Shown piece by piece: positions 330-34,653 of a DNA stretch of 40,414 nt (the first letter of the stretch is position 1; each line of letters begins with the position of its first letter). The DNA comes from a virus. Its lineage: Duplodnaviria > Heunggongvirae > Uroviricota > Caudoviricetes. The stretch is from positions 1 through 40,414 of IMG/VR virus record IMGVR_UViG_2917398303_000004. One strand, 5' to 3'. The translations under genes were made by a program, and so were the position numbers. The notes below the pieces were generated by a model. That model had not been told where the DNA came from. It did not search any database and saw nothing but the letters and a program-made list of their open reading frames with translations.

Positions 330-1439
330 GTGAGCAAAAGAATCGAGTTTGCAAACACGATACGAGGCGTTGCCAGCATGGTTGTTATGTTGGCTCATTA
401 CATAATATCGTTTAATGCCTTCTCTGGTGGCTATGGAGGCCTCCCAAAGATAGAAGGAGGTGTTTTTGATTATGCCTCTGGCCTGTTAGGTTTTGGGATG
501 CCAAGTTTCAGTTACGGAGCATTTGGTGTTGCTCTATTTTTTTTAGTTAGCGGCTTTGTAATACCATTATCTCTAACAAAATTAACAACTCAGCGGTATG
601 GTATACTTGCCTTCATGGTTTCACGAGTTCTAAGGATATGGCCCGTATATGTAATTGGTTTTTCCATATCTATGCTATTCCGATGGTTGTCATTCAATGG
701 CTCAGAACTTAGTGACGCCTACAACATTTATGATGTCATATACCACCTAACTCTTTTCAGGGATTGGATTGGCGGAATGCCTTTAGATGGTGTTGGCTGG
801 ACGCTTGAAATTGAGATTAAATTCTATCTGCTATCAGCAATATTTGCTTATGCGACGGTAAAAGGTAAGCAGTACATTACGATCGTTGCTATGGCAGGGG
901 CGTTTGCTGGGTACTACTTTGGCGTTCAGACGCCTATATATTTTATATTCCCGCACAGCATCCTGTATTGCTTCCAGTTCATACTGTTCATGACCATAGG
1001 CACTAACTTATACTTACTGTACGCTGGAGTGATCAGCAAGAACAAGGCCATACTATGGATAGGGGTGTCGTTAGGTTCATTTATTTATGTTTGCCCTCCT
1101 GATTCCAAAGTTGGATATCTTGTCGCATTTTTAGTGTTCCTGTCATGTTATGTCGCAAGAGATAGCTTTAATGGAGGTGCGATAACATCTTTCTTTGCAA
1201 AGATTAGCTACCCAATGTACGTTGTGCATGCTCTTTTTGGATATGTGACAATGTGGTACATGATAAATCTTGGTTTAAACACCTACGTCGCCCTGATTTT
1301 ACAAATATTGATGACAATATCGATATCATACTTAATGCATTTGTATGTAGAGATCCCCTCCCAAAAATATGGAAAAATCGCGTCTGACTTCATAACGGGT
1401 AGAAGGAAGGTAATTCCTGCTGGTATGGCTGTATCGTGA
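330..1439 (+). CDS. Acyltransferase family 3 integral membrane protein (O-antigen acetyltransferase-like lysogenic conversion candidate)
   Basis: 369-aa multi-TM protein, N-terminal R-G-x-A...LAHY motif typical of acyltransferase_3; GTG start; AT-rich relative to neighbours. Confidence 0.7.
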   Translation: MSKRIEFANTIRGVASMVVMLAHYIISFNAFSGGYGGLPKIEGGVFDYASGLLGFGMPSFSYGAFGVALFFLVSGFVIPLSLTKLTTQRYGILAFMVSRVLRIWPVYVIGFSISMLFRWLSFNGSELSDAYNIYDVIYHLTLFRDWIGGMPLDGVGWTLEIEIKFYLLSAIFAYATVKGKQYITIVAMAGAFAGYYFGVQTPIYFIFPHSILYCFQFILFMTIGTNLYLLYAGVISKNKAILWIGVSLGSFIYVCPPDSKVGYLVAFLVFLSCYVARDSFNGGAITSFFAKISYPMYVVHALFGYVTMWYMINLGLNTYVALILQILMTISISYLMHLYVEIPSQKYGKIASDFITGRRKVIPAGMAVS

Positions 1440-1446
1440 TAAGTAA

Positions 1447-1466
1447 GGGCCAGTGGTTTCTGGCCC
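1447..1466. terminator. Stem-loop between convergent acyltransferase and tail-fibre genes (GGGCCAG-N6-CTGGCCC)
   Basis: 7-bp perfect inverted repeat in the 34-bp gap between convergent stops. Confidence 0.4.
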
Positions 1467-1473
1467 TGCCTTA

Positions 1474-1917
1474 CTAAAAATTACCCTCTGACAGGAATGA
1501 ATAGGTTCCAGGCCCACCAGTAATGTTACACGTCCACGCTTTAGGCTGACCAGAGGTAGGATTACTATTGACTACACGCTCACCTTTTACCCATTCACCA
1601 GTGGTGGGAACGGATGCTCTTTTAAATTCAGTTTTTTTATAGGGAACTTTGTAATATGGTGTTCCCAAAATCATCAAACTAGGATCACAAATTAGCGCGG
1701 AGCCAGTGCCAACCTTAGAAAAGGATAACTGAATATCAGTTGCATCGCCTGGTACTTTTAAACAAATGCTTTTATAAACCCACGCATTACTTCCACCAAC
1801 TGGCACTGTTGCATCTTCTGAAAAATCACCGTTAATTGCCAATCGCAATTTGGTGGGGTTACCAAGGTCATTAACCCAAGCCCCGAACCAGACAAAATTA
1901 CTCCTCAGGAACGCCAC
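1474..1917 (-). CDS. Tail fibre C-terminal segment, in frame with and directly downstream of the 2029-3645 tail-fibre ORF
   Basis: Same reading frame as upstream ORF, separated by a single TAA (2029-2031) and 37 sense codons; GTG start at 1917. Confidence 0.45.
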   Translation of the reverse strand: MAFLRSNFVWFGAWVNDLGNPTKLRLAINGDFSEDATVPVGGSNAWVYKSICLKVPGDATDIQLSFSKVGTGSALICDPSLMILGTPYYKVPYKKTEFKRASVPTTGEWVKGERVVNSNPTSGQPKAWTCNITGGPGTYSFLSEGNF

Positions 1918-2028
1918 ATCATTTGTGATACTTGACCAAACCCTATCGCCATCAGTTACCTCAAATGCGAAATTACCATTAAGAACATACGACTTTTTAT
2001 TCAGAGCACCTGTAGTTCCGCTGACAGC

Positions 2029-3645
2029 TTACCATTCAAGTAGATTTCTGTCGGCAAAATTTCTATTGAAACTCGCACCATCAATATCAATAAAATGACT
2101 TGTGGATGGGTTCTCTATATTCCCATTCGACATATTTCCAAGATAGTTAACGGTGTTTTTTGAATTCGAACCGATATGCAATGGTGAATTTACTTGTGAA
2201 TACTTATTGCTTTTATATAAAGCGAGTAAATCATTAACCTTCGAAGTATCAAGTATCTGAGTTTTCTCAATGCTCAAGTTAGAGGCAAAGTTAGTAAAAA
2301 CAAATGAATTATTTTGTATTGTAGGAATGGTAAATCCAATTGGTGTAACATGCGAGTTTTTAACAGAAACGCATTGATTTATATATGGAAGGTCTAAAAC
2401 TAAGGTTTGCGTATTTAGATTAGATAGCAGATGAATATCTGATCTAACTAATACAACCTCTGGGGCCTGATAAGTTATTCCTAACTCACAGTTGGCCTCA
2501 TAATAGTTACTATCAAGATTAAGTGACTTGCAATTTACAGCAACTATTGCAGCCTTTTTATTCCCCTCCATGTTATTATAATTAACATTTATACTTAATC
2601 CTGCAAGCGGTGACGATGGGGTAATGGTAACCGCTACTCCATTATTGGCGTAAAATTTATTTCTTTGAACGTTAACATTATTGGCAATCCCAGTTATTTT
2701 GATGCTATCGCCAAAATTAGAGAAAACGCGACACCCTGTTATATCGTTACTATAGCCACCAAGATCAATGGCATATCCAATTGTGTTTGTAACAATAATA
2801 TTATCAATTTTAGTGTGATTACTCTCAGGAAGTAAAACTCCTTCCGTTAATCCATTACCATTAATACTGAAATCACTTAGCTCCAAAAAAGCAATTTCAC
2901 CAGATTGCTGGGTTATAAACGGAGATCCAGCCTTTGCTGAAAATAATGATGATTGATATGGCCCCTGACCTTCAATTTTTACTAGTTTGTCTTTTATGGT
3001 AATCCCAGGATCAACGTTAAACCCTCCCGCTGGTATTATAAACTTTGTTGCGCCAGAAGCATCATCAATAGCTTTCTGGAATGCTGCTTTGTTCTGAGCC
3101 CCAGTATTCCCGACTTTAAATCCGTAGTCAGAAAGCGTTACCAAATCCACAGCGAATTTGTCAGATACCGACATCGAAACGCCATCATTAAACTTAGGTG
3201 TATATGTAACGATGTCAGAACCCTTAATGGGGTTGTCACTGATTAAGTCTCCCCTCAGTGTAGCATCGCCAACACTCAACCATGCACCTGGCCCTATACC
3301 GCCTGTAGACGCAGGTGTTGACCCAGGAGGAACTAACTTAGGTAACAGCCCATCCCATCTGTAATATTCGCCATCACCATCAGGGAGCTTCCAGCGTAAT
3401 GCCTGATCTGCACGAGTTAAATCTGCACCGTCCTGGAATGAATCCATCATCGTCCATCCCATGGAGGATAGTTTTTCCTGATAACGCTTTTCCATTCCAT
3501 GCCATGTCAGTCTGGTCTTACCAAATCTATCAGGACATGTCTCATTTGATTGATCGTTTGAAAGGTAATCGAAGTTCTGCGCATTATCATACAAATCTTT
3601 TGCGGCAGAAGACCCCAGCGGATTGCCGGTGTTATAAGTAGTCAT
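2029..3645 (-). CDS. Tail fibre / tailspike protein (beta-helix-like repeats)
   Basis: Start at MTTYNTGNPLG with GAGG Shine-Dalgarno 6 nt upstream; repetitive N/G/S-rich beta-strand-like sequence; last gene of tail operon. Confidence 0.65.
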   Translation of the reverse strand: MTTYNTGNPLGSSAAKDLYDNAQNFDYLSNDQSNETCPDRFGKTRLTWHGMEKRYQEKLSSMGWTMMDSFQDGADLTRADQALRWKLPDGDGEYYRWDGLLPKLVPPGSTPASTGGIGPGAWLSVGDATLRGDLISDNPIKGSDIVTYTPKFNDGVSMSVSDKFAVDLVTLSDYGFKVGNTGAQNKAAFQKAIDDASGATKFIIPAGGFNVDPGITIKDKLVKIEGQGPYQSSLFSAKAGSPFITQQSGEIAFLELSDFSINGNGLTEGVLLPESNHTKIDNIIVTNTIGYAIDLGGYSNDITGCRVFSNFGDSIKITGIANNVNVQRNKFYANNGVAVTITPSSPLAGLSINVNYNNMEGNKKAAIVAVNCKSLNLDSNYYEANCELGITYQAPEVVLVRSDIHLLSNLNTQTLVLDLPYINQCVSVKNSHVTPIGFTIPTIQNNSFVFTNFASNLSIEKTQILDTSKVNDLLALYKSNKYSQVNSPLHIGSNSKNTVNYLGNMSNGNIENPSTSHFIDIDGASFNRNFADRNLLEW

Positions 3646-3701
3646 ATGGACCTCATAAACGAAAAACCACCGAAGTGGGTTTGTTAAGATGTTGTTTGTG
3701 A

Positions 3702-6419
3702 TTAAGCTACATTGCCGGGGTAGGAGGCATTGTCGTATTGATAGAAGGAGTCGCGGTATTCTTTTGCTGTAACCTGACATGTTCCGTCAGACTGCGGTGA
3801 AATCTCTGAGATTAGTGCGCTGTAACCAACACGTGAAGATTCGCAGAATATAAGGCGTGGAGGTTCGATAGATTGATCATTCAGTATGATGCCGATGAAC
3901 TCATCCTGTTCAGACACCGATAATTCATAATCACTAACCTTAGTAACTGGAAGCAAACCAGACGCTGAGCCATCCTGATAGCGAATTAACGCGCGCGGAT
4001 TGTTGAATGTCCAGTCAAGTGGTTCTGATACAGCGATAGTTGTTACACCACCTACAGTTCTCATATGATCAATCAAAGTGCTGATTGTTTTGCTACCTGG
4101 AATGTCATCAGTAAAAACAATTCGGTCGCCTACGTTATAGCAAAGCGCGTCCATTTCCGTGGTCGTGGTATGGGTCAAACGCTGCTGCCTGTACTTCATC
4201 AGCCTTCGCATGCCTATCTGATAAGCTCTGTCCTGATCAAGCACGCCATCAAGCGTATAATCTTCAACTTTAACTGGAGTAGGATTACCCGATGTTCTGC
4301 ACTGAACCGTCTCTTCAGCCCACGTAGTGCCATTAATGTAAGTGACATCCACGCCATCATAATCATCGGCTGATGGTGCAACGAAGGCCGTTTGAAGCGC
4401 TTCTGTCATTTCCTGCGGGCTAATGATTCCCGTCCACGTTTTCACCCCCTCCCTTCCAACAGAAGCCATACCATCAGACAGCAGGAAATAGCTTTTACCT
4501 GCACTGGTGACTTTCTGAAACATTTCAAGAGCGGAAACTGAGTCTGTTGTTGCGTAATCGAAAAACTCGCTATCAGGCGTCCAGTAAGATGATTCCAGCA
4601 TATCAATCGCTTCGTTATCCATCGCAAGCCCCAGCTCATTTCCAATGTGGTATAGCGCACCTGAAATGCTCCTGGAAATACCGGAATCATAAATGCGTGT
4701 GGCGACTACGTTGACACGGCGATCGGACTGAGCGGCAAGCTTTCCACCCGTTTCGACTGAGACAGCCATAGTGGTTACACCAGAGTATGATGATGGTCTT
4801 GAAAGCAACCTCCCCCTCAATGACTGCCAGTACATGTTATCCCTGCTGTTATCCTGACCTTGTTCGTTCGTTCTCCTGCATCTAACCTCTACCAAACCGG
4901 CTGATGCCAACGTGATACGCTCAGTAAAACCTAACCCATTAATATTTTGCTGATTGTAAGATCCAGTTTTGCTGGTCCAGCCTGAACCAGAACCGTAAAC
5001 ACGGTATTGAATTTCCCACTGAACAATCCTGTTCTGCTTCCTGCCCTTCTTGTTATACCCACAAATACCGTTTGGGAAGAAGAAATTGACCTCAAACATA
5101 TCAACGACTTCATTATCTGGACATGTGAGAAACGGCCCCATCCATTTATTGTTCTGATTTAATCCGTTTGCTTCAAAATCAAGCACTGTACGCGGCGTGA
5201 AACCTGGCCATTCCGGGTCAACAGCACCCTCTACAACACGCTGTAAAGTAACGGTGCTGGCGTCGATTTCCAGAATTTTATATTCGCTGCCTGAGTGCGA
5301 TACTGATAAACGAATGTATCCTTCAGGAATACCAGTAAATGCTGTTCCGGTTGCGCTTTCATACGCCAGAGCGATTGACGCCGTAACAACGTCTTCATCA
5401 ACAGGTTCTGAATGGGGGATGTAATCAGCAATGAAAAGCTGGTAATCGATACTGTTGTACCAGAGAGTAACTGGCATACCGATGTATGGAGCAATCTCTT
5501 CCAGTGTGTCACTGGTTATTCTGCTGTATGCGCCATCATTGGTGACAACATAAGAATCTGGAACAATCAGTTCAACAATTGCACCTTCTGTCCATGAGTC
5601 AGGAAGGTCGTTTGTATCAGTATTTCCATCGTCAGTACTAAGGCCGTTAAAGGTGATATCTGCACCAGATACCGTTAATGAATCTGCTACAACATCCTGT
5701 GTATCCGGGGCTGTCTGCGCCATATCAAGACCAGAACCAGATGCCGTTCCGCCTACTTCTGTTGAGTTGAACCAGTTTTCCGTTCGCTGATCACCGATAA
5801 TGTTCTGTCCTGGCTGATATACATTATAGGTAAACCCATCACCAAGAGAGGCGATTGGCGTTGACCCAACGCGAATGTCGCCATCACCAAATGAAAAACG
5901 GCCCATACCCAGCACCACAAACATTTCAACCGTCATTACAGTCGGATCATCAGTTGAGAATCTTGTTACTGGTTGCACTGCATAATCTGGATAAATACGG
6001 CTGCGACCAAATAACTCGCGTATCGGATCACCCAATTTCGCGTTATTCGCTTTAGCAGGATTTACATCAAGTGGATTACCTGTTCCTGATGAATAACCAC
6101 CAAGATCACCAACACCAGGAGCAAAGAATAAAGCGTAAGCTACAGACGCAACTGATACGGCAACTGCAATCCAGGCGAGAGCTACAGCACCGTAAGGAAC
6201 AGGATAAATTCTGACGTCGCTATCCGGGCTGATTGCGAACTCAAACCACGCCTGAGATGGAATATTTTTCCCATCAACGTCAATTGTGATCGGCTGTTTA
6301 ATATCAGGCTTATAGCCCTCTACTTTTTTTGACAGCCATTGATGTATGGTTATAGCGCCATGTTCATGTGTTTCCAGCGGTTCGCCGGGGATGCGGGAGG
6401 GGTAAATTCGGATAGTCAC
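3702..6419 (-). CDS. Tail tip / host-specificity (central fibre, J-like) protein
   Basis: 905-aa protein immediately downstream of NlpC/P60 tail assembly gene and upstream of tail fibre; start overlaps upstream stop. Confidence 0.6.
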   Translation of the reverse strand: MTIRIYPSRIPGEPLETHEHGAITIHQWLSKKVEGYKPDIKQPITIDVDGKNIPSQAWFEFAISPDSDVRIYPVPYGAVALAWIAVAVSVASVAYALFFAPGVGDLGGYSSGTGNPLDVNPAKANNAKLGDPIRELFGRSRIYPDYAVQPVTRFSTDDPTVMTVEMFVVLGMGRFSFGDGDIRVGSTPIASLGDGFTYNVYQPGQNIIGDQRTENWFNSTEVGGTASGSGLDMAQTAPDTQDVVADSLTVSGADITFNGLSTDDGNTDTNDLPDSWTEGAIVELIVPDSYVVTNDGAYSRITSDTLEEIAPYIGMPVTLWYNSIDYQLFIADYIPHSEPVDEDVVTASIALAYESATGTAFTGIPEGYIRLSVSHSGSEYKILEIDASTVTLQRVVEGAVDPEWPGFTPRTVLDFEANGLNQNNKWMGPFLTCPDNEVVDMFEVNFFFPNGICGYNKKGRKQNRIVQWEIQYRVYGSGSGWTSKTGSYNQQNINGLGFTERITLASAGLVEVRCRRTNEQGQDNSRDNMYWQSLRGRLLSRPSSYSGVTTMAVSVETGGKLAAQSDRRVNVVATRIYDSGISRSISGALYHIGNELGLAMDNEAIDMLESSYWTPDSEFFDYATTDSVSALEMFQKVTSAGKSYFLLSDGMASVGREGVKTWTGIISPQEMTEALQTAFVAPSADDYDGVDVTYINGTTWAEETVQCRTSGNPTPVKVEDYTLDGVLDQDRAYQIGMRRLMKYRQQRLTHTTTTEMDALCYNVGDRIVFTDDIPGSKTISTLIDHMRTVGGVTTIAVSEPLDWTFNNPRALIRYQDGSASGLLPVTKVSDYELSVSEQDEFIGIILNDQSIEPPRLIFCESSRVGYSALISEISPQSDGTCQVTAKEYRDSFYQYDNASYPGNVA

Positions 6420-12969: not shown

Positions 12970-13296
12970 TTAAAGAATTGTCGGCTTACGGAGGTCGTAA
13001 ATCAGCATTGAAACAGAAAATGGAAGTTCACCTTGTTTCAGCTTCTCTTCCTCTTCGCCGCCACGATTACGGTCAAGATAGCCAAGCAGAACCAACAGGG
13101 CTGTCTGAACGCGAGTAAGCGGCTCACCATCGATAAGTTTTCCAGTGTCATCAACGATCAGTGACCTGCTTCCCTGGATGTAAGAAAGGATTGCTGCACT
13201 TCCACCCTGTATTTTTAAGGTCAGGTCCAAATCACCGTAATCATCATCGATACGGAGATGAATTTTTGCCTCTTCGAGCGTCACCAGTTCAATCAT
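12970..13296 (-). CDS. Head-tail connector protein (gp6-like)
   Basis: N-terminal LEEAKxHLRIDDD motif typical of gp6-like connectors. Confidence 0.6.
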   Translation of the reverse strand: MIELVTLEEAKIHLRIDDDYGDLDLTLKIQGGSAAILSYIQGSRSLIVDDTGKLIDGEPLTRVQTALLVLLGYLDRNRGGEEEEKLKQGELPFSVSMLIYDLRKPTIL

Positions 13297-14177
13297 GGCT
13301 TATCCCTCAGGTCTCGACCTTTCTTAACAGCAAGTGTCCATCCCTTAGAGCCCGTTTCACCTGGTTTGTCGGTAGTAGGTTCGCTGCAGTGCCACATAGA
13401 GCCGCCCCATGTAACAGTGTCGCCAGGCTGATACTCTGTACCGGCTTTAAACACATCACGATAAATAGTTACCGGGATGTCAAAGGACTTAACTTCAACT
13501 GCTCCACTTGCTCTTTCCAGTGAGATTGAGAAGGTTCGCTGTTTATCCTGTTTGATATCGACGTTCGACACGCCATCAACGATGCATTCCCAGCCTCGCA
13601 TGCCGTGCGTCTTTTCATGAGAGCGCCAAAGACCGCCGTTGTGTGTTGCGTAAGTTCCGCGAGGGTAACTTTTCGTCTCGTCAATGAATGGTTCTAGCTC
13701 GATTGATAAAGCATCTTTACCATCGCTGCCAGGCTCAGGAACTTGAATGTTCGCGGCCACATCTTCAGCCAGTTTTTCAACATCTACCGGCTCTGGAAGT
13801 GATGCTGATACAACCTCTTCAACCAGAGAGCGAAGGTCTTCTGCACTGACGCTTTTACCATCCTTAGGCTTGGGTAGTGATTCTAAAGCCTGCTTCACCG
13901 CACTTTCGGCTGCGTCGTCAATGATCTGGCTAAAGTCGGGTAGTTCTGGTGATTTTGGCAACTCAATAGCGCTTACCGCTTCCGCAACCATTTTGGATAC
14001 ATCAGGAATTTCTACAGGTTGAACTTCAGGGATTGATCCCCTCAGTTCTTCAAGTTGCTTTTCCAGATTACTGGCTGTTTTCTCCAGCGCTTGATGAAAG
14101 TCATCTGCCATTTTTTGAATGGCTGTTCCAAACTCTTCACCAAGCGCCTTTATCAGGGATAATTCACGTTCATTCAT
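13293..14177 (-). CDS. Hypothetical head-module protein with coiled-coil N-terminus
   Basis: 294-aa ORF between portal and connector genes; acidic coiled-coil N-terminal half. Confidence 0.4.
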   Translation of the reverse strand: MNERELSLIKALGEEFGTAIQKMADDFHQALEKTASNLEKQLEELRGSIPEVQPVEIPDVSKMVAEAVSAIELPKSPELPDFSQIIDDAAESAVKQALESLPKPKDGKSVSAEDLRSLVEEVVSASLPEPVDVEKLAEDVAANIQVPEPGSDGKDALSIELEPFIDETKSYPRGTYATHNGGLWRSHEKTHGMRGWECIVDGVSNVDIKQDKQRTFSISLERASGAVEVKSFDIPVTIYRDVFKAGTEYQPGDTVTWGGSMWHCSEPTTDKPGETGSKGWTLAVKKGRDLRDKP

Positions 14178-15526
14178 TTTGTTAATAATCCTCTGAGCAT
14201 TGATTTCGCCGCGAAAAGTTCTGTCTCGGTTAATGCTTTTCCACCTTCGTCTACTGGCTCTGGCGATGGCTGCGTCTGTTGCGTCCCTTTCGCGAATGGG
14301 TCTTCTGATGCATCGCGCTTGGCCAGAGCTGCCAGGCTGTAGTTCTGCTGCTGCAGGAAGAGAGAATCACCACCTTCAACAGGAGGAAGGTTTTCACTTT
14401 TACGGGCTTCGTTTGGAGTAAGAATGGTGCTTTTGACGCCATCACCCAACGCTTTCATTCTGCGTTCGCTGTCCATGCGTAATAGTGCGCCGATATCAAG
14501 TTCAACCCGCTTTTTTACACCAAGATCGAAAGCTTCTTTCAGAAGAGACTCGATAGATTCAATCAGCACCTGCAGGCACTGTGAGTAATATTGTTGCTCA
14601 AGCGCTTCAACGTTGTCAGAACTGGGTATTTCTCCTACGCCAGCTTTATATGCCGGGACGTGGAAAGCTGAGCAAACCATTTCAGCAGAGAGTTTCTGCT
14701 GCTCAACAGTCTGTGCATCGACAGCTGACATGGTGATCGCTTTGTATTCTGCGCCGCCTGATAGCAGTCCAGTTTTCCCAGCATTTTCTCCGGTGTAACC
14801 TGTATCCCACCCTGCTTTAATTTCTCTCGCTTTAACTTCATCAATTGAGCCAGGAACAGTGATAACACCGCTTGGTTTACCTCCATTTTTAAAGAAGAAT
14901 GCAGAGCTTTCCTGAATGTGCTTCCCCTGCATTGCGGCGAGTCCGCAGGCGTAGATGGGAGAAATGCCAATAAGAGGATGAAATAGGCAATTAAAGCGAT
15001 CGTGAATGATTTCGCGTGCAGGTACGGTTACTTGTGCCGGGAGACCACTAATCTGGTCAGGACTGATTTGGTAAAAGACAGACCCGTCATCAGCGACCAA
15101 AGGGATGACTTTATCCGGATCAAGAATGCGAAGCTCTGTAATTTTCCCGGTATTATTTTTTACCTTCATCACGTAGGTGTTACCGCGTGAAAGTTTAGAA
15201 TTCATCCACGTTTCAAAGAACTGAATTGTGTTCTGAAACTGGTTAGGTTTGCTGATTAGTTTATCGAAATTGTCATCCGCAACTTCTTTCCAGATGCCAT
15301 TAGAATCTTTGGCCTGAATGGATGGCGACATCTTTGAAATGTCACTGGCAATCAGGGTTATGCAGGAAAACACCGCATAATAGGAAAGTACGGTTTCATT
15401 CCTGATTTCCATGTTTCTTTGCCAGGCGCCTGCGAAAGGTTCTCTGACAAAGGAAAATATTGGAGTCCAGCCGCGAGATGATGGTTGCTGTAGTGCTTTC
15501 TCTTTCCGTCTAAAAGGATTCCACAT
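14174..15526 (-). CDS. Portal protein (HK97 family)
   Basis: 450 aa with NGGKPSGV...GENAGKTGLLSGGAEYK region typical of the Phage_portal family. Confidence 0.7.
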   Translation of the reverse strand: MWNPFRRKEKALQQPSSRGWTPIFSFVREPFAGAWQRNMEIRNETVLSYYAVFSCITLIASDISKMSPSIQAKDSNGIWKEVADDNFDKLISKPNQFQNTIQFFETWMNSKLSRGNTYVMKVKNNTGKITELRILDPDKVIPLVADDGSVFYQISPDQISGLPAQVTVPAREIIHDRFNCLFHPLIGISPIYACGLAAMQGKHIQESSAFFFKNGGKPSGVITVPGSIDEVKAREIKAGWDTGYTGENAGKTGLLSGGAEYKAITMSAVDAQTVEQQKLSAEMVCSAFHVPAYKAGVGEIPSSDNVEALEQQYYSQCLQVLIESIESLLKEAFDLGVKKRVELDIGALLRMDSERRMKALGDGVKSTILTPNEARKSENLPPVEGGDSLFLQQQNYSLAALAKRDASEDPFAKGTQQTQPSPEPVDEGGKALTETELFAAKSMLRGLLTK

Positions 15527-15696
15527 CAGCCATTCTCCGCGTTAACTTTTTTCTTTTTCGGTCCGCCAGCTTTTTTGCCAGTCAAATATTCAGCTTTATG
15601 CAGCAGAACCAGCACCTTTGCGCACTGGTCATTCACATTTTTCTCATCACCTGGCAATGAGTCATGTGTACGCTGTAGGTATCTGATCTTTGCCAT
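15526..15696 (-). CDS. Small Lys-rich ORF (56 aa) translationally coupled to portal gene
   Basis: Own translation; TGATG stop/start overlap with portal ATG; below the ORF-track size cutoff. Confidence 0.3.
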   Translation of the reverse strand: MAKIRYLQRTHDSLPGDEKNVNDQCAKVLVLLHKAEYLTGKKAGGPKKKKVNAENG

Positions 15697-15728
15697 ATGA
15701 AATGGCGGGGTTTCCCCCGCCCTCCTTC

Positions 15729-17375
15729 TTAGCTGGTAGCGCCAGTGCTGTAATCAACGCCGGAGATAACAGCTACTGCTGCATCGCGACGGCGTTTCCA
15801 GTTAATCCAGCGCTCTGCACGAATGGCCACGCTGTTGGTCTGGAACATGGATACCAGTTCCACTGCCGTTGGTGTGGTGCTGTCATGGGTCGGAGTACTC
15901 TGCATTTCCAGAGAAGCTTCGCGAGACATATCAACGGCGACACCGCCGTCATCAGCCAGGTACACATCCGGCGCGTTAACCAATACCAACTGATTGCCAA
16001 CGTACTGGGAGACAATTACTGGCAGACCCTGGAATGTACCGCCCAGCATGGTCATGTCAGGATACTCTTTCTGGCCCAGGGCATTTTTACGCATTGAGAG
16101 AGTGAGAGCCGTAGTACTGGACATCAGCCATACCGCGCCATTCGGCTGCAGGTTATTGGTAATAAATTGACCAAATGCTGCTGCAGCATCGGTATCCGGA
16201 TCGCCAGTAGACGGAATCGCAGTAATGCCGTTGGTAATAGATGCAGGGGAAACATCAGCCACTGCCGCTTTTGCCGGGTCGATGAAGTCGGTATCCAGCC
16301 GCGCGATCACCGCTTCAGCCAGGGCGTTACGCACCAGAGCATCAGCAGATGGATTTGAGAAACGGATCAACTCTTCGGTCAGTACTGCAATAGAAGCCAC
16401 CTTGGAGAAACCGAAGGTGATGGTTGCGAAGTCAAACTTGGTCAGAGGCTTGGCTTTACCCTGACCAACCCAGTTAGCAGAACCTCCGGAGGTCTGCGCC
16501 GGAATTCGAACATTGAACGGAACCTGACGCAGGGACGGGATGTTACCCTGGCCAAAACGTCCGATAATGGTCTGAGGACGCAGAAACTCAACGAAATCCT
16601 GCGCGTAATCCTGATATTCAACCAGTGCACCAGCCCAGGCAGGGTCTGTGGTAGTGCCAGCACTTACCGCAGCTTTCAGAACGTGATGAAGTTTGGTGTC
16701 ATCAGGATACTGGTTTTTCGCAATCTGTAGCGCTTCGGAGCGGCTACCGTTACCAGCTGCCAGAGACTTGGCAAAACGGGCAAAGGCAATACCTTTTTCC
16801 AGCTTAGGCTCTACACGGATGATGGATGGTGCGTTATTCACCACTGTAACTTCACCAGATGCTGCTTTAGTTACTGGCTTGGCGGTTGATGCCATGCTGG
16901 TTTCCATATCACGCAGGCGTTTAAGGTGCTCGTCGACCGCTTTGATTTCAGTAGAGGTGTTGTCGTAGCTTTCTGTTTCTTCCGCATCCAGCGTGCGGCC
17001 TTCATCGGCGGCTTTGCTCATGATGTCGTTCAGTGAAGAGGCCAGCGCTGCACGCTTGTTTTCAAAACTTTTGATCTGTTCAGCGATATTCATCGTTGAT
17101 TTTCCTTTTTGAGAAGATTTATTCGGTGCTGAAGCGCCAGCAGAATTTATGGTTTTCACTACCGGTTTCTCAGTGCCGAGCGCGGCGAGTAACTGGCGGT
17201 CAAACGATTTAACGGTTTGAATCGAACACTCGGCATTCGCCGGGATCGTTACTGCAGAGACTTCAAGAAGCTCCCATTCAAGAAAATGGATGCCACCAGA
17301 GCCGAGATATGCGTATTTAATTGGCTTGAAGCCGATAGAAAGGCCTTTCACAGACCTGATTTGATCGATGCCCAC
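15729..17375 (-). CDS. Major capsid protein (HK97 fold) with N-terminal scaffold-like delta region and the C-terminal part of an S78 prohead protease domain
   Basis: GLSIGF protease Ser motif at N-terminus, coiled-coil segment, then capsid-fold core; in a different frame from the protease N-terminal ORF. Confidence 0.75.
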   Translation of the reverse strand: MGIDQIRSVKGLSIGFKPIKYAYLGSGGIHFLEWELLEVSAVTIPANAECSIQTVKSFDRQLLAALGTEKPVVKTINSAGASAPNKSSQKGKSTMNIAEQIKSFENKRAALASSLNDIMSKAADEGRTLDAEETESYDNTSTEIKAVDEHLKRLRDMETSMASTAKPVTKAASGEVTVVNNAPSIIRVEPKLEKGIAFARFAKSLAAGNGSRSEALQIAKNQYPDDTKLHHVLKAAVSAGTTTDPAWAGALVEYQDYAQDFVEFLRPQTIIGRFGQGNIPSLRQVPFNVRIPAQTSGGSANWVGQGKAKPLTKFDFATITFGFSKVASIAVLTEELIRFSNPSADALVRNALAEAVIARLDTDFIDPAKAAVADVSPASITNGITAIPSTGDPDTDAAAAFGQFITNNLQPNGAVWLMSSTTALTLSMRKNALGQKEYPDMTMLGGTFQGLPVIVSQYVGNQLVLVNAPDVYLADDGGVAVDMSREASLEMQSTPTHDSTTPTAVELVSMFQTNSVAIRAERWINWKRRRDAAVAVISGVDYSTGATS

Positions 17376-17665
17376 GCTTCTTCAAGCCTAGCCACAAGTT
17401 GCGATGGCATGTCAGGTGTTGGCTTAACAAGTTGCGCCGTGATCTGAAGCCCTTCATTCACTTTCTTTGCAGAACAGTTCCCAATAGGTTGGGTTCTGTC
17501 GTGCTGCCAGAGAAAAGGGTTTTCACTGCCGAACTTCGCACCGTCTGGGTCCATAATGTCGCCGTCACGGTCAGGTGATGGTGTGGAAGCAATCCCGGTG
17601 ATTATCCGTTTGTCCTCATCCACCGCTTTCACCGTCATGATCGTACATGCGCGGTCAAGCTTCAT
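17348..17665 (-). CDS. Prohead protease (S78/U35 family) N-terminal portion, frame-broken from the downstream ORF
   Basis: Contains the WQHD catalytic His region; the Ser motif lies in the overlapping ORF 15729-17375. Confidence 0.55.
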   Translation of the reverse strand: MKLDRACTIMTVKAVDEDKRIITGIASTPSPDRDGDIMDPDGAKFGSENPFLWQHDRTQPIGNCSAKKVNEGLQITAQLVKPTPDMPSQLVARLEEAWASIKSGL

Positions 17666-17723
17666 TTACTGTCCTCCAGAAACGAAAAAAACCGCCGCTG
17701 CGGGTTATTAACTGACGTGTTAT

Positions 17724-17996
17724 TTATATAAAAAAAACCTGGTAATCTTTCTTCTTCGCTTCAGGATTAAGTGCCATTAGCGAAACGGCATTAAACAGGG
17801 CCATAAGGGGGTCAATTTTCCCCTTTCCGCTGGCCTGTTTGGTGATGAGGATAGCGTTACCTTTTGGCTCTACTCTGGCGTTGCCTACACACCAGGCCAT
17901 TAATGGCTGTCCACCATGAATAAGCACCTCCCTCTGCAAGCTTGCGCTCTGTTGTCTTAATCGCACCACCAAGTCTCCAGCCCTGGCTGACACCAA
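17724..17996 (-). CDS. Terminase large subunit C-terminal fragment (alternative frame)
   Basis: HGGQPLMAWCVGNARVEPKGNAIL...GKIDPLMA resembles terminase large subunit C-termini. Confidence 0.5.
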   Translation of the reverse strand: MVSARAGDLVVRLRQQSASLQREVLIHGGQPLMAWCVGNARVEPKGNAILITKQASGKGKIDPLMALFNAVSLMALNPEAKKKDYQVFFI

Positions 17997-19383
17997 CCAC
18001 TGAATCTTCAGGTATTTCAGCTTCTACAAGAGCATCAAGAATCTGACCGACACCAGAAGGGTCAATGCCAATTTTATCCAGCAGTTCCGCATCATTAATA
18101 CGGCTGACATATTCAGCGACTTCCTCCGTGTCCTGTCCTACTCGTTTTACGATAGTGAGGTCACCGGCCTTAACGAAATCGTTGAACCTGGATTCCTCGC
18201 TTTTGCGGCGGCGCACAGCTATTTCATGCGCCCAGGCATGGCCCCAGCCAATCCACTCACGGGTTTCTTTGTCACGACCAATAATGTAAAGACCAAGAAG
18301 GTCATCAAGGCCACCACCATCTATCCCAACCGTAGCAACCTCAGCTCTCTGAAGGATATCGCTGAATGTTACCTGCCTAATTTGCGGCTCCCAGAAATCA
18401 ACGCCTGCCCATCGGTCACTGCGGAGGTTCAGACCAATTTCGATATTGAGGTGTTTCGCAAGGAACTGCTGTAATGTGCCGTCTGTTTTGTTCTGGTTCT
18501 TCAGAAGCTGATCGGCAATCCATTCTTCACTTACCGAACGTCCAATATTTGGATTGGTGATGTAGAAATTTTTTGGTTCAAGGTAAGCCTTACTTTCCAC
18601 CATAGAGTCAGGGAATTCATACAGGACGCCGAGTGTTTTAAGGTCATTAATCTTTCCATCTCGCACAGCACGCCAGTAATCAAGGCGTTCTTTGAATACA
18701 CCAGCAGGTGGTTCATCACTTTGTGTAGTCAGGAATATAACCCAGCCTTCGTTGCGAGATACCTGACCACCAAGTGCTTCCATAAACATGGCTTCGGCAT
18801 TAGCTCGCTTGCCAAACAACCAAAGCTCATCAACCAGAATGCGCCCTGACTTTTTACCTGAAACAGTATCGGTGTCAGCTGCTACTACTTTGAGTGTATT
18901 TCGCGTTACTCGGTGTGTGATGGTGCGGATATGGTCCTGAATCTGGAACATATCAGACAGCTCATCATCGGCGCGTATCATCCCGGCAGCAGGTTTAAAA
19001 CTGTTATCTGCAACCTCTTTTGTCGGCGCGAGAATCAGGTGCTCTTCATCTTCACGCCAGCACAGGATTAGCGCGGTCAGCATAATCCCTGCAGCGATGG
19101 TCGATTTTGTGTTCTTTTTCGAGATAAGTAGTCCATATTCGCGGATTAACTGCTTACCAGTCTCTGCTTCATAGCCACCGAAGATGGCATTTACAAAGTC
19201 AAATACCCATTCCTCTGAGCACTCACCAAATGTTGGCTTCCCTGGTAAATCAGAGACGCGTAACTCTTTGAAGATTCCAAGTGCCTGTTCTGCCTGGTCT
19301 GGGAAAATTGGTGGTGGGATGATTGATTGCTTTGCAACCAGAAGAGATTCCCATTCAGGGCAAGCCGTGGTCCATTGAGCCAT
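17857..19383 (-). CDS. Terminase large subunit (frame-disrupted near its 3' end)
   Basis: ATPase and nuclease-like regions; C-terminal terminase sequence continues in ORF 17724-17996 in another frame. Confidence 0.8.
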   Translation of the reverse strand: MAQWTTACPEWESLLVAKQSIIPPPIFPDQAEQALGIFKELRVSDLPGKPTFGECSEEWVFDFVNAIFGGYEAETGKQLIREYGLLISKKNTKSTIAAGIMLTALILCWREDEEHLILAPTKEVADNSFKPAAGMIRADDELSDMFQIQDHIRTITHRVTRNTLKVVAADTDTVSGKKSGRILVDELWLFGKRANAEAMFMEALGGQVSRNEGWVIFLTTQSDEPPAGVFKERLDYWRAVRDGKINDLKTLGVLYEFPDSMVESKAYLEPKNFYITNPNIGRSVSEEWIADQLLKNQNKTDGTLQQFLAKHLNIEIGLNLRSDRWAGVDFWEPQIRQVTFSDILQRAEVATVGIDGGGLDDLLGLYIIGRDKETREWIGWGHAWAHEIAVRRRKSEESRFNDFVKAGDLTIVKRVGQDTEEVAEYVSRINDAELLDKIGIDPSGVGQILDALVEAEIPEDSVVGVSQGWRLGGAIKTTERKLAEGGAYSWWTAINGLVCRQRQSRAKR

Positions 19384-19386
19384 TGA

Positions 19387-19923
19387 TTACCCCTTGTTAT
19401 TAACAACAAGTTTCGGCGGTGCCATTGCCCCAAACTTGCTACCCGTAGCTGCGACCTTCGCGGCGGCATGTCTCGCATCCTTTTTACCGCCTTCTCCTTT
19501 TTTGGGGTGAAGGTATGGCAGCATTGCTTTTGCGGCGTCTTTTCTGACATCTGTCTCTTCTGATACGTCGTTCATCACTGCTTTCAGGAACTCAAGCGGA
19601 TCATCAAATTCCTTCACCGTTCTGTTAACAACTTTTGGCAGTTCATCTGGTTCAGAAACAGCCTGCTCGACAATGACTTCGGCCCCACGTTTTTTACTGA
19701 TAAACGCGATGATATCCGGGTCTTTTGCCAGCCGGGAACCCTGAGACCTCGCGGTTTTCTCGGAGTAACCGGCCTTTCGGGCTGCTTCAGCCTGGGATGA
19801 ACCGGACATCAGCGCTTGTGCGAATTTGCGCTTTTGTCCTGTTAACACGTCAACATCCTCCAAAGGGGAAAATTTTCTGCGCATGAGAGGGGGCGCGGTG
19901 TCCAGCGCGATCGGCGTTGACAC
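19387..19923 (-). CDS. Terminase small subunit
   Basis: 178-aa ORF with helix-turn-helix-like AEAARKAGYSEKTA segment, immediately upstream of terminase large subunit. Confidence 0.7.
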   Translation of the reverse strand: MSTPIALDTAPPLMRRKFSPLEDVDVLTGQKRKFAQALMSGSSQAEAARKAGYSEKTARSQGSRLAKDPDIIAFISKKRGAEVIVEQAVSEPDELPKVVNRTVKEFDDPLEFLKAVMNDVSEETDVRKDAAKAMLPYLHPKKGEGGKKDARHAAAKVAATGSKFGAMAPPKLVVNNKG

Positions 19924-19949: not shown

Positions 19950-20318
19950 TCAGAGAATTACGATGCCAGATTGTGATTTATCTTTCGGCACAGAGTGCTT
20001 CAGAGCCTCACCATCAGGCTGGTTCATTGATGCTTCGCGCGATGACTTACCTGAGTGACACTCAATGCACAGAGTCCACAGGTTGCGCTCATCGTTGTCA
20101 CCACCGAACTGTAGAGCTATGCGGTGATCAAGCTCGCTGTCATGAAGGTCAACTACTCGCTTACACATACAGCAGTGACCACCGTCACGAACATAAATAC
20201 GCCGCTTTAGGCTTACCCTTGCGCTACCACTCACACGGCGATGCTCACCATAAACAGGCTTTATTCGGCGTGTGTCGATAGCCTTTAGGCGCGGTTGTAG
20301 TGTCTTTAGCTTAGACAT
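19950..20318 (-). CDS. HNH endonuclease (terminase-associated)
   Basis: CxxC...DH...N...CxxCH motif; GGAGG Shine-Dalgarno 5 nt upstream of ATG at 20318; adjacent to terminase small subunit as in HK97-like phages. Confidence 0.75.
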   Translation of the reverse strand: MSKLKTLQPRLKAIDTRRIKPVYGEHRRVSGSARVSLKRRIYVRDGGHCCMCKRVVDLHDSELDHRIALQFGGDNDERNLWTLCIECHSGKSSREASMNQPDGEALKHSVPKDKSQSGIVIL

Positions 20319-20904
20319 GTAACCTCCATGCTCTACGTCTTTCTGTTCTTGGCTGATTGTCTCTGGCTGGTTCCACTGGCTGTCCGTCAGCGTGGTCAAC
20401 GAGCGAATAGCATGGATAGACAACAGGACCACCGTAAGCATCGCCTACTGCATAGTCTGCTGCTTTGCCGTGATTCCATTTATCCAGAACTCGCTTGATA
20501 TGCTGATGCGGTACGCTGTAGCAGACGCCATGGATCAGGCGTGGAAGTGTGATGTAATCCGTTCTGCTCTTATCTGCTGCGATTAGCTTTGATGCTATAT
20601 CGAGTTGATATTGTGGAGGACGACCAGTACCGAGATAGAAAGAAACCAGCGCATCAGGGAAGCGCTCAATCCACTCAGCGAGTTTGTTGGTGAACCCATC
20701 AACTGGAATTGCATCGTCTTCTAAAATGACCACTCGGCAAGACTGCTCTTCTGCCCATTCAAGAGCACGGCGGTGATTCCAGTTAGCACCGTTATCTCCC
20801 GTGTCGATAAGCAGTAATGCACCTATCGACTCTGCCAGAATTAATGCTTTTTTGTGGCGCAAATGGTGACCAACAACCACAAACTTTACTTGTGCCTCCA
20901 CCAT
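20311..20904 (-). CDS. Hypothetical protein, possible GT-A-like nucleotide-sugar transferase
   Basis: 197 aa; beta-strand/helix start KFVVVGHH and acidic VVILEDD segment suggest a DxD-type fold; overlaps both neighbours. Confidence 0.4.
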   Translation of the reverse strand: MVEAQVKFVVVGHHLRHKKALILAESIGALLLIDTGDNGANWNHRRALEWAEEQSCRVVILEDDAIPVDGFTNKLAEWIERFPDALVSFYLGTGRPPQYQLDIASKLIAADKSRTDYITLPRLIHGVCYSVPHQHIKRVLDKWNHGKAADYAVGDAYGGPVVYPCYSLVDHADGQPVEPARDNQPRTERRRAWRLHV

Positions 20905-22343
20905 GCCAACTCCTTGCCAACGCCTTCAGACTTGAAGATGGTATGAACCTTCGGCCCGGTAATAACCTTGTTGCCAAATGACTTTGCCACCATGCAAAAT
21001 GCACCCATATCAACTTTCGTTTCTGGAGCTTTCTCAATCTTCCAGAAGCGATGGCTTTCAATCAGATAATGCTGACGGATGATACGATGCGCGAACTCCA
21101 TAACGTCTTCACGGCTACCACCTAACAGGCCAGCATTAAGCAGTGGTTCATCGCGATGCTGCTCGATGAAATCGCTATACGCCTTGCCGTGGTGATTAGC
21201 TTTCATCCATTCGTCAGCATACGTCTTGTGCTCTGAGCCAACGTAAATTTTACCCGACTTCATTTCTTCCCATGGCTCTCGCAACATTTCAACGTCAGTA
21301 CCATCAGTGCACCAGACAAGGTGATACTCAGGGTGCGCACGTAGAAACTGATAGATGTGAAGCCAGCGGGCAAAGTATGGGCTCATGTCCACCAGCGGGA
21401 CTTCCCCCAAGCCAGCACCAGTTGGCGATTCTTTTAATTCGTCAGCCAGGACGATCGGTAATGCGCCGGATATTGAGTCAGCCCATGATTGCAAAACCTG
21501 CGGGTCGGGTTTCATCTTCCCGCCGCGCTGTGGGTCTGGCTGGCTTGTGAGTAGCGTCGTAATCACCAGATTTGGGTTTCTGCTGTACGAGGCAAAGCCT
21601 GTATAACCGCTGTCGCGTCGCGTGTTGAAGATGCCAACGTTTCTTTTTACCAGCGCCTCTCGGTCAGGTCGTGGAATTGAGCGCGTGCCCTCTTCGTTCT
21701 CATCCATTGAATGAATCAGTTTTTCAGAGCCGGCCACATCAGCGAACGCCCAGGTCGATAACCCGGCATTGTGAATGCGTAGCGCCAGATCGGGATGCTC
21801 ATACATGCCGCGACCATAAACCGGATCGAAACCGCCAACCTTCACGATCGCGCTGCGGTGGTAATACAACATCACACCGCGTTGTCCGGTGTAAGCGATA
21901 TGCTTATCATCCCGGTACAGCACAGCCATATCATTAAGCTTTCTCGGCCCAGCAAGATCGAGAAACTGGTAAGCCAGGTGCGGCTCGGGGGATTCGATGT
22001 AGGGAAGATGCCAGTTATCAGCGATGGGCCATGCATCATCATCCCATAGGAAGAAATGCTCGCACCCCGCGTCCATAAGTGCTGAAAGGCTGGCGTTCTT
22101 TGATGCAACTATTCCGAGAGATGTTTTATGACGTAGCAACTTCACACCTTCTGGAACTACAGCAGCATGGTTTGAGCCATCATCGATAACAACCACCAGC
22201 GCACCAGATGGAAGATGCTTCATGTGCTGCTCAATAGAGCGTTTAAGCACTTCAGGACGGTTATGGGTTGTTATTGCGATGCCAATTCGCGATGAGTTGG
22301 TGCATTCTGGTACAAAACGCACACCCCCTATTAAGACTTCCAT
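20886..22343 (-). CDS. Family-2 glycosyltransferase domain protein with approx 250-aa C-terminal domain of unknown function
   Basis: N-terminal IGIAITTHNRPEVL...VVVIDDGS...FFLWDDDAWP matches GT2 signature incl. DxD; no TM segments seen. Confidence 0.65.
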   Translation of the reverse strand: MEVLIGGVRFVPECTNSSRIGIAITTHNRPEVLKRSIEQHMKHLPSGALVVVIDDGSNHAAVVPEGVKLLRHKTSLGIVASKNASLSALMDAGCEHFFLWDDDAWPIADNWHLPYIESPEPHLAYQFLDLAGPRKLNDMAVLYRDDKHIAYTGQRGVMLYYHRSAIVKVGGFDPVYGRGMYEHPDLALRIHNAGLSTWAFADVAGSEKLIHSMDENEEGTRSIPRPDREALVKRNVGIFNTRRDSGYTGFASYSRNPNLVITTLLTSQPDPQRGGKMKPDPQVLQSWADSISGALPIVLADELKESPTGAGLGEVPLVDMSPYFARWLHIYQFLRAHPEYHLVWCTDGTDVEMLREPWEEMKSGKIYVGSEHKTYADEWMKANHHGKAYSDFIEQHRDEPLLNAGLLGGSREDVMEFAHRIIRQHYLIESHRFWKIEKAPETKVDMGAFCMVAKSFGNKVITGPKVHTIFKSEGVGKELAWWRHK

Positions 22344-22666
22344 ACACCACCATCAGCAAGATTACGCGTTGCAAGAAAGTCGTTCACCGCACCCCGTAAC
22401 TCTTCTACCTGTTCAACGGTTAATGGCTCACGTGGATGGATCACAAGATGGATCGCGGTAGGTGCGAGAGGGTTATCCAAATTAATGCGCGGTTGGTTTT
22501 CTGAGTGCTCATTACTAAGGTTAAATGTCGCGATAACCTTCGGTATGGCGTTCGGTTCAGTTTCTAATACTGTTGAAGCCTGTCCATCAAGAAGAACACC
22601 ACCTACGGCTATTCCATATCCGAAGAAACGATTACCACGATACAATTTTGCGAGCTGATATTTCAT
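22331..22666 (-). CDS. Hypothetical protein (first gene of glycosyltransferase operon)
   Basis: 111-aa ORF with AAGGA Shine-Dalgarno; 13-nt overlap with downstream GT gene. Confidence 0.5.
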   Translation of the reverse strand: MKYQLAKLYRGNRFFGYGIAVGGVLLDGQASTVLETEPNAIPKVIATFNLSNEHSENQPRINLDNPLAPTAIHLVIHPREPLTVEQVEELRGAVNDFLATRNLADGGVWKS

Positions 22667-25201: not shown

Positions 25202-25458
25202 TAGTGCCTCAGAGCATCAATAAGACGCGCCACGTTTCCCCGAGCCCAAAGCACGGCGGCGCATATCAGGATGTTAACGATGACCACCAGCCAGTGTGAT
25301 TCCAGGTATAGGCCGAACAGATAGCGGAACGGGATGCTGGCATAAACCAGCACCGTGAAATAAGCGAGAAGAGAAACTATCGGGCGATGTCAGGCACCGC
25401 CACGCTGGTAAAACATCAGAGTAAGAACGATGATCGCGCTAATGCCCGCATTGATCAT
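25201..25458 (-). pseudogene. Holin-like small membrane protein interrupted by in-frame TGA (25390-25392)
   Basis: Own translation: MINAGISAIIVLTLMFYQRGGA-stop-HRPIVSLLAYFTVLVYASIPFRYLFGLYLESHWLVVIVNILICAAVLWARGNVARLIDALRH; TAATG overlap with endolysin start. Confidence 0.35.
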
Positions 25459-25468
25459 CGCTGAAGGA

Positions 25469-25864
25469 TCACTTGTTACCATTGCCGGTCCCTCCACCAC
25501 GTAAACGCGAGAGAATTCCAAACAGGCTACCCAAATCCTGGCTGTTGACGAAAGTCAACAGCTTAATAGCAATTGCGGCAACGATTACCGCGCCCAGCGC
25601 ATCAAGTGGTCTGTCGCTATACCCCGTCCATTTGGAGAAGAAGGAGCCAAGCAGTGGCGCGCCAATAACGCCGAAGATGAATGAGGTGATGAAGTAGCCA
25701 GTCAGCTTAAGGCGGCTGATATTAACCGCCGTAGCGACGTAGAATACCGCGCCAGCGAATGCGCCAAACACAACACCATAATCAATACCGGTTGCGATAC
25801 CAAAAACACTGGCTCCCATAAGGCCACCAGCGGCAACCGTAGTGCCAGAAACAGGATCGGACAT
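25469..25864 (-). CDS. Multi-TM membrane protein, putative holin
   Basis: 131 aa, 3-4 predicted hydrophobic helices, first gene of lysis block. Confidence 0.45.
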   Translation of the reverse strand: MSDPVSGTTVAAGGLMGASVFGIATGIDYGVVFGAFAGAVFYVATAVNISRLKLTGYFITSFIFGVIGAPLLGSFFSKWTGYSDRPLDALGAVIVAAIAIKLLTFVNSQDLGSLFGILSRLRGGGTGNGNK

Positions 25865-32282: not shown

Positions 32283-32496
32283 GCGTTAGTTTCTCCACTG
32301 AATACGACACGCCACGACGCCAGGAGCTGCACACTCGCTGGCGTCACTTCTTTTGACGGCGGCTGAATAAGGCCACAATCGCGCGAATTTCTTCTTCACG
32401 TGCTGCCAGATGGCGGCGGTGCTGTTCCTGAATTTCTTCGGCTTCATGCTTTTCAATCACTCCATCCTCAAGCGCCTTCTGGATAATCTGATCCAC

Positions 32497-32838
32497 CTAC
32501 CCTCTTGCAGCTGCTGTACGCATTGCACGACTGAACAAATCAACACGGTCAAGATCTTCCAGGCTTGGTACGTCCACCAGCAGTGCGCCGCGACGCTTGG
32601 CAAAGTAGTCGGCAACGAATGACGTGTTGGAAATGTCCTCCATCGCTTCCAGCTCAGTGACCTCAAAGAAACGACAACCGTTTTTCTCGTAAAGGTTGTT
32701 GTTGAATTGGGTTTCTGACATGCCCAACGCACCAGCCATAGCCTGACGGCCTCCGGGGTACGCCTTACACATCGCTTTCACCACGTCTTTCAGGGTTTGC
32801 TCTACCATCTTTTTTTTCCTTTGGTAGTTATCAATCAA
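32497..32838 (-). CDS. cII-like regulatory protein (HTH)
   Basis: 113-aa ORF immediately downstream of cro; AMAGALGMSETQF HTH-like segment. Confidence 0.45.
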   Translation of the reverse strand: MIDNYQRKKKMVEQTLKDVVKAMCKAYPGGRQAMAGALGMSETQFNNNLYEKNGCRFFEVTELEAMEDISNTSFVADYFAKRRGALLVDVPSLEDLDRVDLFSRAMRTAAARG

Positions 32839-34574: not shown

Positions 34575-34653
34575 GCGGCATTAGCTCAGTTGGATAGAGC
34601 AACGGCCTTCTAAGCCGTGTGGGTCGCAGGTTCGAATCCTGCATGCTGCACCA
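34575..34653 (+). tRNA. tRNA-Arg (anticodon UCU) with encoded CCA
   Basis: Hand-folded cloverleaf: 7-bp acceptor, D-arm, anticodon stem ACGGC/GCCGT with loop CTTCTAA, 7-nt variable loop, T-arm GCAGG-TTCGAAT-CCTGC; resembles argU-type tRNA. Confidence 0.8.

Follow-up and report, generated by a model that had tools for sequence, protein, structure and literature searches.

A probable recent nonsense mutation divides the tailspike gene of a defective prophage in Escherichia sp. E4694

The DNA analyzed here (the window: 40,414 nucleotides [nt], positions 1 to 40,414 of IMG/VR virus record IMGVR_UViG_2917398303_000004) consists of a single, complete prophage of Escherichia sp. E4694, a lambdoid siphovirus of the HK97-like kind, and its tailspike gene is interrupted by a single in-frame TAA at 2029-2031. 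The reading frames on either side of this codon are parts of one 723-codon gene, and the prophage that carries it is defective. We consider it highly probable that the interruption is a recent serine-to-ochre nonsense mutation in a decaying prophage, which would make the gene an ordinary pseudogene. In outline, the ancestral gene would have encoded a virion anchor, a beta-helix O-antigen depolymerase or binding domain, and a C-terminal sandwich resembling a carbohydrate-binding module (CBM), followed by a tail. One substitution would have turned codon 539 from Ser to TAA, with translation stopping past the beta-helix and the 184 codons beyond, which have no start signal, left as dead but still undecayed sequence. 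The tailspike mutation would then be part of a general decay of the prophage.

Translation of the minus strand from 3645 to 1474 gives 538 sense codons, the TAA at 2029-2031, 184 further sense codons, and a TAG at 1474-1476, which is the original stop of the full-length gene, intact relatives likewise ending in ...FLSEGNF. The 5' fragment of the pseudogene (codons 1-538) accordingly occupies 2032-3645 and the 3' fragment (codons 540-723) occupies 1477-2028, both on the minus strand, and the premature stop lies at codon 539 in the context CTT GAA TGG TAA GCT GTC AGC, with G as the next base. The gene begins at the ATG at 3645, which is preceded 5 nt upstream by a Shine-Dalgarno sequence, GAGG (3651-3654, minus strand). 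The first start-type codon past the TAA is GTG 1917 (codon 577), with 37 codons intervening; no Shine-Dalgarno sequence is present in the sequence upstream of it, GGTCAAGTATCACAAATGAT, or before TTG 1848, TTG 1842, and the later GTG and ATG codons downstream of the TAA. The open frame past the TAA is not a product of chance, as 184 open codons in AT-rich DNA have a probability of about 6e-6 from base composition, none of 200,000 shuffles was open, and the other five frames of the same stretch contain 6 to 29 stops. The sequence-only reading that preceded this work had described the TAA, the 184 open codons, the missing Shine-Dalgarno sequence, and the GTG 37 codons in, and was accurate throughout.

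A strong hairpin lies in the gap between the tailspike gene and a convergent O-acetyltransferase gene (1439-1474; -20.5 kcal/mol, z = -5.4 by direct folding) and is probably a bidirectional terminator. It is the only strong hairpin, it is common to the acetyltransferase gene, and it follows the far stop at 1474-1476, not the premature TAA. A consensus terminator scan of 1200-3900 returned no site.

Homology runs without interruption across the stop. Within the 689 positions of PHROG 8846, the upstream fragment corresponds to 41-502 (5e-133) and the downstream fragment to 504-689 (1e-53); the single position missing between them corresponds to the stop codon, and a match over the full profile, C-terminal domain included, is obtained only when both fragments are joined. 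Similarly, the tailspike of phage N7 (709 amino acids [aa]) aligns with residues 130-723 of the joined protein at 43% identity (E = 3e-152) and without a gap at the junction, where NLLEW-stop-AVSGTTGAL in the window stands against SMLSW-F-RFAGTTGSL in N7, with Phe opposite the stop. Taken by itself, the downstream fragment shares 53% identity with the last 184 aa of the N7 protein. A search of 5.8 billion proteins yielded 62 other homologues of 51% identity or less, most of which cover 100% of the stop-spanning query, and the remainder are partial or broken elsewhere, at scattered points. In 14 distant homologues aligned in detail, the position equivalent to the stop is T, F, V, S, N, or A and in none a stop, and in every homologue that reaches the downstream region this region is fused to the beta-helix. 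We also considered whether members of this family are recurrently truncated at the same boundary, which was rejected, as the shorter members (541-595 aa) break at scattered sites beyond the stop-equivalent position; several of them end in junk tails or are flagged as partial, as contig ends would give.

Other searches of the locus returned little. Megablast of 1300-3800 found no match in the phage collection and, among complete E. coli genomes, matched only the TipJ end and the tailspike N terminus. The downstream peptide of the window, scanned against IMG/VR, GTDB genomes, and JGI metagenomes, found only relatives of about 50% identity, and an exact pattern search with N at the stop codon gave no match.

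Assignment to the tailspike family is made on the basis of the Tail_spike_N and beta-helix domains, the joined PHROG 8846 match, and position in the tail module, as the gene lies immediately downstream of a TipJ-family gene (3702-6419) and the tape measure protein gene. The annotated proteins WP_135491497.1 (538 aa) and WP_135491495.1 (122 aa) are two fragments of one tailspike pseudogene. The sequence-only reading had proposed that both parts be aligned with intact tail fiber homologues; they map to one contiguous protein, and this alignment bears out its suggestion that a nonsense mutation truncates the receptor-binding C terminus.

Close relatives carry a sense codon at the site of the stop. 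The 90%-identity cluster of the window protein contains five relatives that extend across the stop position, and all of them read RNLLEW-S-AVSGTTG: P0064 (CAM8332570.1, a 470-aa fragment from E. coli CP340M), P0066 (a Logan protein of 723 aa, exactly the fused length), P0068 (a Logan protein of 833 aa), and the ENA fragments P0069 and P0070. The intact alleles P0064, P0066, and P0068 are 97-98% identical to the window protein over residues 130-723, with the same length and the same C terminus, ...FLSEGNF. P0066 and the window also have their N-terminal anchor in common; the intact alleles differ from the window in the Ser at codon 539, and P0068 differs further in its anchor domain. From these protein sequences, the ancestral codon 539 would have been the serine codon TCA, from which a C-to-A transversion, a single substitution, yields TAA.

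The same relatives inform on the age of the mutation. Between the window and P0066 or P0068 there are 4-5 amino-acid differences in the 184 residues downstream of the stop and 10-11 in 409 upstream, and the 184 downstream codons contain no second stop or frameshift. As the downstream part has not diverged faster and has acquired no second lesion, the mutation is recent relative to the divergence of these alleles. The truncated form was found on a single contig, PDIB01000034.1 of Escherichia sp. E4694 (GCA_004745285.1), where WP_135491497.1 matches the 538-aa product exactly. A literature search on the strain name E4694 gave irrelevant matches only.

The position of the stop within the predicted domain structure suggests what the truncation removes. 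The N-terminal virion-anchor domain covers codons 1-129 (window 3259-3645) and includes Pfam Tail_spike_N (PF18668) at residues 91-127 (1.9e-15); it is followed by the right-handed beta-helix, the receptor-binding or depolymerase part, at codons 130-538, with Pfam Beta_helix (PF13229) at residues 269-395 (4.7e-9). A Pfam search of the 184-aa downstream part found no family. The AlphaFold2 (AF2) model of this part contains an eight-strand beta-sandwich at its residues 9-120 (window ~1669-2004), with a predicted local distance difference test (pLDDT) score of about 80-90, followed by a conserved C-terminal tail of about 60 residues (window 1477-1656) that AF2 models poorly. In a Foldseek search of the PDB, the best matches to the sandwich were CBM4 and CBM22 (E = 5e-5, template-modeling score 0.4-0.46), together with the C-terminal region of the CBA120 tailspike protein (TSP) TSP4, all of them modest. 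The predicted structure of an intact 724-aa homologue (P0041) shows a comparable arrangement, with the anchor at 1-115, the beta-helix at 168-502 (pLDDT ~90), a weakly modeled connector, the beta-sandwich at 547-660, and the C-terminal tail; the residue equivalent to the stop is 538 in this model and falls within the connector. On these models, the 538-aa product retains the anchor and the complete beta-helix but not the CBM-like sandwich and the tail. In Klebsiella phage KP32 gp38, deletion of the C-terminal modules (CBM or CBM-LEC) abolished activity, and LEC was needed for trimerization (PMC13082707). By analogy with this protein, the truncated 538-aa tailspike is expected to be non-functional.

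Two further observations concern the architecture of this family. The last ~45 residues of the tail (1477-1620) carry the motif VPTTGEW.KGERV.NS.P..GQPKAWTC...GGPG.Y.F, which recurs in pectate-lyase-type tail proteins that are otherwise unrelated, from a freshwater myovirus (53% identity; L002 3001-3135) and from Bacillus phage C30-1 (47% identity). It is tied to phrog_21471 and phrog_23059, has no Pfam family, and is poorly modeled by AF2; it may be a widespread C-terminal trimerization or chaperone-like module. The receptor-binding module, in turn, is found on at least four N-terminal anchors across the tailspike family (P0002-P0068), with the swap point near residue 130. These anchor forms are the 723-aa Tail_spike_N type of the window, the 833-aa form of P0068, an 873-aa form of E. 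coli including O26:H11, and the 707-709-aa form with a P22-type head-binding domain, as in N7; homologue lengths fall into classes of 873, 718-724, and 707 aa, among others.

When the tailspike is placed into the context of the whole prophage, further damage becomes apparent. Each protein of the collinear prophage of E. coli PCP07014 (L019), whose genes are all annotated as intact, was projected onto the window. The terL gene (17727-19383, minus strand) has a 1-nt insertion at ~17929 (within 17925-17935, GGGTGTG to GGGAGGTG); the resulting frameshift leaves an open reading frame (ORF) of 508 aa in place of 552 aa, in which 23 out-of-frame residues take the place of the last 67. The gene for the fused protease and major capsid protein (15729-17665, minus strand) has a 1-nt deletion at ~17353 (within 17340-17375, TT to T), which is present also in the Logan assembly of sequencing run SRR6148338 and divides the single 645-aa gene of the relative into ORFs of 105 aa and 548 aa that match PHROG 617 at 7-112 and 112-626. 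A second holin-family gene (25204-25482) has AGA changed to TGA at codon 31 of 93 (25390-25392, minus strand), and a ymfL-like regulator gene (32347-32808) has CAG changed to TAG at codon 104 of 154 (32497-32499, minus strand). The tailspike TAA brings the number of lesions to at least five: two frameshifts, both outside homopolymers, and three nonsense codons, each a different stop. The sequence-only reading had not recognized the TAA as one of several lesions. The other structural proteins compared, as well as ParB and the integrase, align from end to end with no stop or change of frame, most of them at 92-100% identity to their counterparts, with TipJ at 88% and a 294-aa protein at 85%.

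These are inactivating lesions in genes for virion production, and the prophage is defective. The pattern is that of a prophage recently freed from selection for virions and not that of a noisy assembly or of recoding. With the terminase and capsid genes frameshifted, we infer that the element produces no virions, and an intact tailspike would then be under no selection. A separate observation in the early-left region could be a sixth lesion: two overlapping plus-strand ORFs in different frames (37370-37924 and 37845-38570) both match phrog_17234 (at 57-162 and 151-203), which could reflect a frameshift or ead/Ea22-like mosaicism. Comparison with E. coli TST3 showed this region to be mosaic and was uninformative on the point.

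Several considerations weigh against the nonsense-mutation account as set out here. The codon TCA is read back from the protein sequences of relatives, the expected loss of function of the truncated protein derives from an analogy, and the C-terminal 60 residues are modeled with low confidence. The stop itself is known from assemblies, of which SRR6148338 is not confirmed as consisting of E4694 reads, and a systematic base-call error is formally possible. On this last point it could be argued that a sequencing or assembly error conceals TCA, a sense codon, at 2029-2031 and with it an unbroken tailspike of 723 aa, as the TAA is one base from the presumed Ser codon, occurs in one genome only, and is supported by assemblies, not reads. 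However, the Logan assembly of run SRR6148338 contains an independent 1,940-nt contig that spans the site and is 100% identical over the 1,401 nt compared, TAA included, and it reproduces the capsid frameshift, the one of the four other lesions that was checked there. The TAA lies outside any homopolymer or repeat, where a consensus substitution error made by two assemblers is unlikely, and none of the four other lesions of the prophage, complex changes among them, falls in a homopolymer run. Neighboring genes are clean, in that the portal, ParB, the integrase, the tape measure protein, and TipJ align with the proteins of the relatives with no stop or frame change, at 93-98% identity (TipJ 88%). 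The error explanation, one of those raised by the sequence-only reading, is very unlikely in view of this second assembly and the other lesions.

A different possibility is that the nonsense mutation is real and that the anchor and beta-helix protein has been kept because it is useful to the host, for instance, as a domesticated factor for O-antigen modification or exclusion. In its favor, the protein is cut cleanly between domains, the tailspike gene retains its start codon and Shine-Dalgarno sequence, and cI, integrase, ParB, and O-acetyltransferase are still intact. Against this, the truncated allele occurs in a single strain and shows no sign of time under selection in truncated form, expression of late genes needs induction, and removal of the C-terminal modules from the analogous KP32 gp38 abolished both activity and trimerization (PMC13082707). 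Such domestication is highly improbable. The same low standing applies to a combined version, in which the truncated tailspike is still expressed, either with a long form made at a low level by readthrough of UAA or, in domesticated form, as a free O-antigen depolymerase or exclusion factor, with the repressor, integrase, and O-acetyltransferase kept. Readthrough or suppression that yields a short (538-aa) and a long (723-aa) tailspike, as the sequence-only reading had also entertained, would account for a downstream frame that is fully open and as well conserved as the upstream part, and stops within reading frames that seem to be under purifying selection are reported to be widespread among bacteria (PMC7918605). 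The same study notes UGA as a leaky stop, finds in-frame stops to be commonest in phage and transposon genes, and attributes the excess to pseudogenes. Here, however, the stop is not conserved, being found in no relative, close or distant, and the window encodes a single tRNA, Arg(TCT), which is not a suppressor. The codon is UAA followed by G; in E. coli, UAA terminates most tightly and UGA is leaky. The other nonsense codons of the prophage are TAG and TGA, and no single suppressor would rescue the element; with terL and the capsid gene frameshifted, a long form would moreover have no virion to join. We regard readthrough as extremely unlikely. The last alternative, that the downstream ORF is an independent gene, such as a C-terminal lectin or chaperone starting at GTG 1917 or TTG 1842, agrees with the prediction of 122-aa (WP_135491495.1) and 147-aa proteins in this part by gene callers. 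Its probability is close to negligible: homology already runs from the codon directly following the TAA, 37 codons ahead of any start codon; no candidate start has a Shine-Dalgarno sequence; either start would cut into the beta-sandwich, the strands of which run from downstream residue 9; and the region is fused to the beta-helix in all homologues that reach it.

Comparison with known systems places the nonsense mutation and the protein that it interrupts into perspective. An intact counterpart of the receptor-binding part is the tailspike of Escherichia phage N7 (Lederbergvirus, MH717096; AYR02211.1), in which the similarity noted above covers the beta-helix and the C-terminal domain and is continuous across the stop. 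Unlike the window protein, the N7 tailspike is intact and has a P22-type head-binding N terminus on a podovirus, whereas the window encodes a Tail_spike_N-type anchor in a siphovirus with a TipJ tail tip. The prophage of E. coli PCP07014 (NZ_CM129871.1, 2.913-2.947 Mb) resembles the window at the level of the whole element, being collinear over ~30 kb at 79-95% nucleotide identity by block and 98% in the capsid region, with the same gene order from the cro side to TipJ. The N-terminal 134 aa of its tailspike are 81% identical to those of the window, but this 647-aa protein has an unrelated receptor-binding domain after the same anchor, and all genes compared are intact in PCP07014.

Tailspikes of the CBA120 TSP type (PF18668 plus beta-helix; PDB 5w6f, 5w6h, and 4oj5) share an N-terminal TSP1/Gp66-like motif with the window protein by sequence, as well as the architecture of anchor, beta-helix, and C-terminal beta-sandwich, and TSP4 is among the fold matches of the C-terminal part. 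The sequence similarity is, however, confined to about residues 60-200 (mostly ~60-140), and the catalytic part is not detectably similar. The A1 protein of Q-beta is a product of programmed UGA readthrough, in which the stop is conserved, leaky, and essential. The window resembles Q-beta in that a gene for a structural protein contains an in-frame stop beyond which the frame stays open; it differs in that the stop is UAA, is present in one strain only, and lies in a prophage with other lethal lesions.

For annotation, the fragments WP_135491497.1 and WP_135491495.1 should be combined as one tailspike pseudogene, and beyond this the finding has little importance of its own. The prophage, though complete in gene order, should count as defective. 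For scans that look for recoding, the case is cautionary, as a clean open frame past a stop in a phage structural gene is also how a recent nonsense mutation looks; the quickest test is to examine the codon at the same site in close relatives and to check the element for further lesions.

The order of genes in the prophage begins with the integrase (39404-40414), a ParB-like gene, cI (33167-33886) with a cro-side regulator, replication genes, and Q, and continues with holins, a glycoside hydrolase family 19 (GH19) endolysin, and spanin, a glycosyltransferase cluster, and HNH, terS, and terL. It ends with the protease-capsid fusion, portal, connectors, tail tube, tape measure protein, TipJ, tailspike, and the convergent O-acetyltransferase. 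Past the acetyltransferase, the host flank is yecA-tyrP-ftnA; in a relative in E. coli TST3, the integrase adjoins tRNA-Leu/Cys/Gly.

Two regions of the prophage may serve to modify the host surface. The gene convergent with the tailspike (330-1439, plus strand) encodes an Acyl_transf_3 / O-antigen O-acetyltransferase (phrog_3333), which appears intact, unlike the late genes, and is likely a seroconversion moron. Between the lysis genes and HNH/terS lie three genes on the minus strand (20311-22666), encoding a 111-aa protein, a 485-aa GT2 glycosyltransferase (phrog_1579), and a 197-aa protein (phrog_854); the cluster is kept in the PCP07014 relative and may be a second module for modification of surface polysaccharide.

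The head genes (13293-19923, minus strand) have an unusual order, with terS, terL, the protease-capsid fusion, the portal, and then the 294-aa protein, which matches the C-terminal part of long "portal" PHROGs (phrog_2271 positions 713-857). As the intact relative has the same head-gene order, this is a trait of the lineage. The tRNA-Arg(TCT) gene lies at 34575-34653 (plus strand), inside the prophage, with the cI region on one side and the early-left genes on the other.

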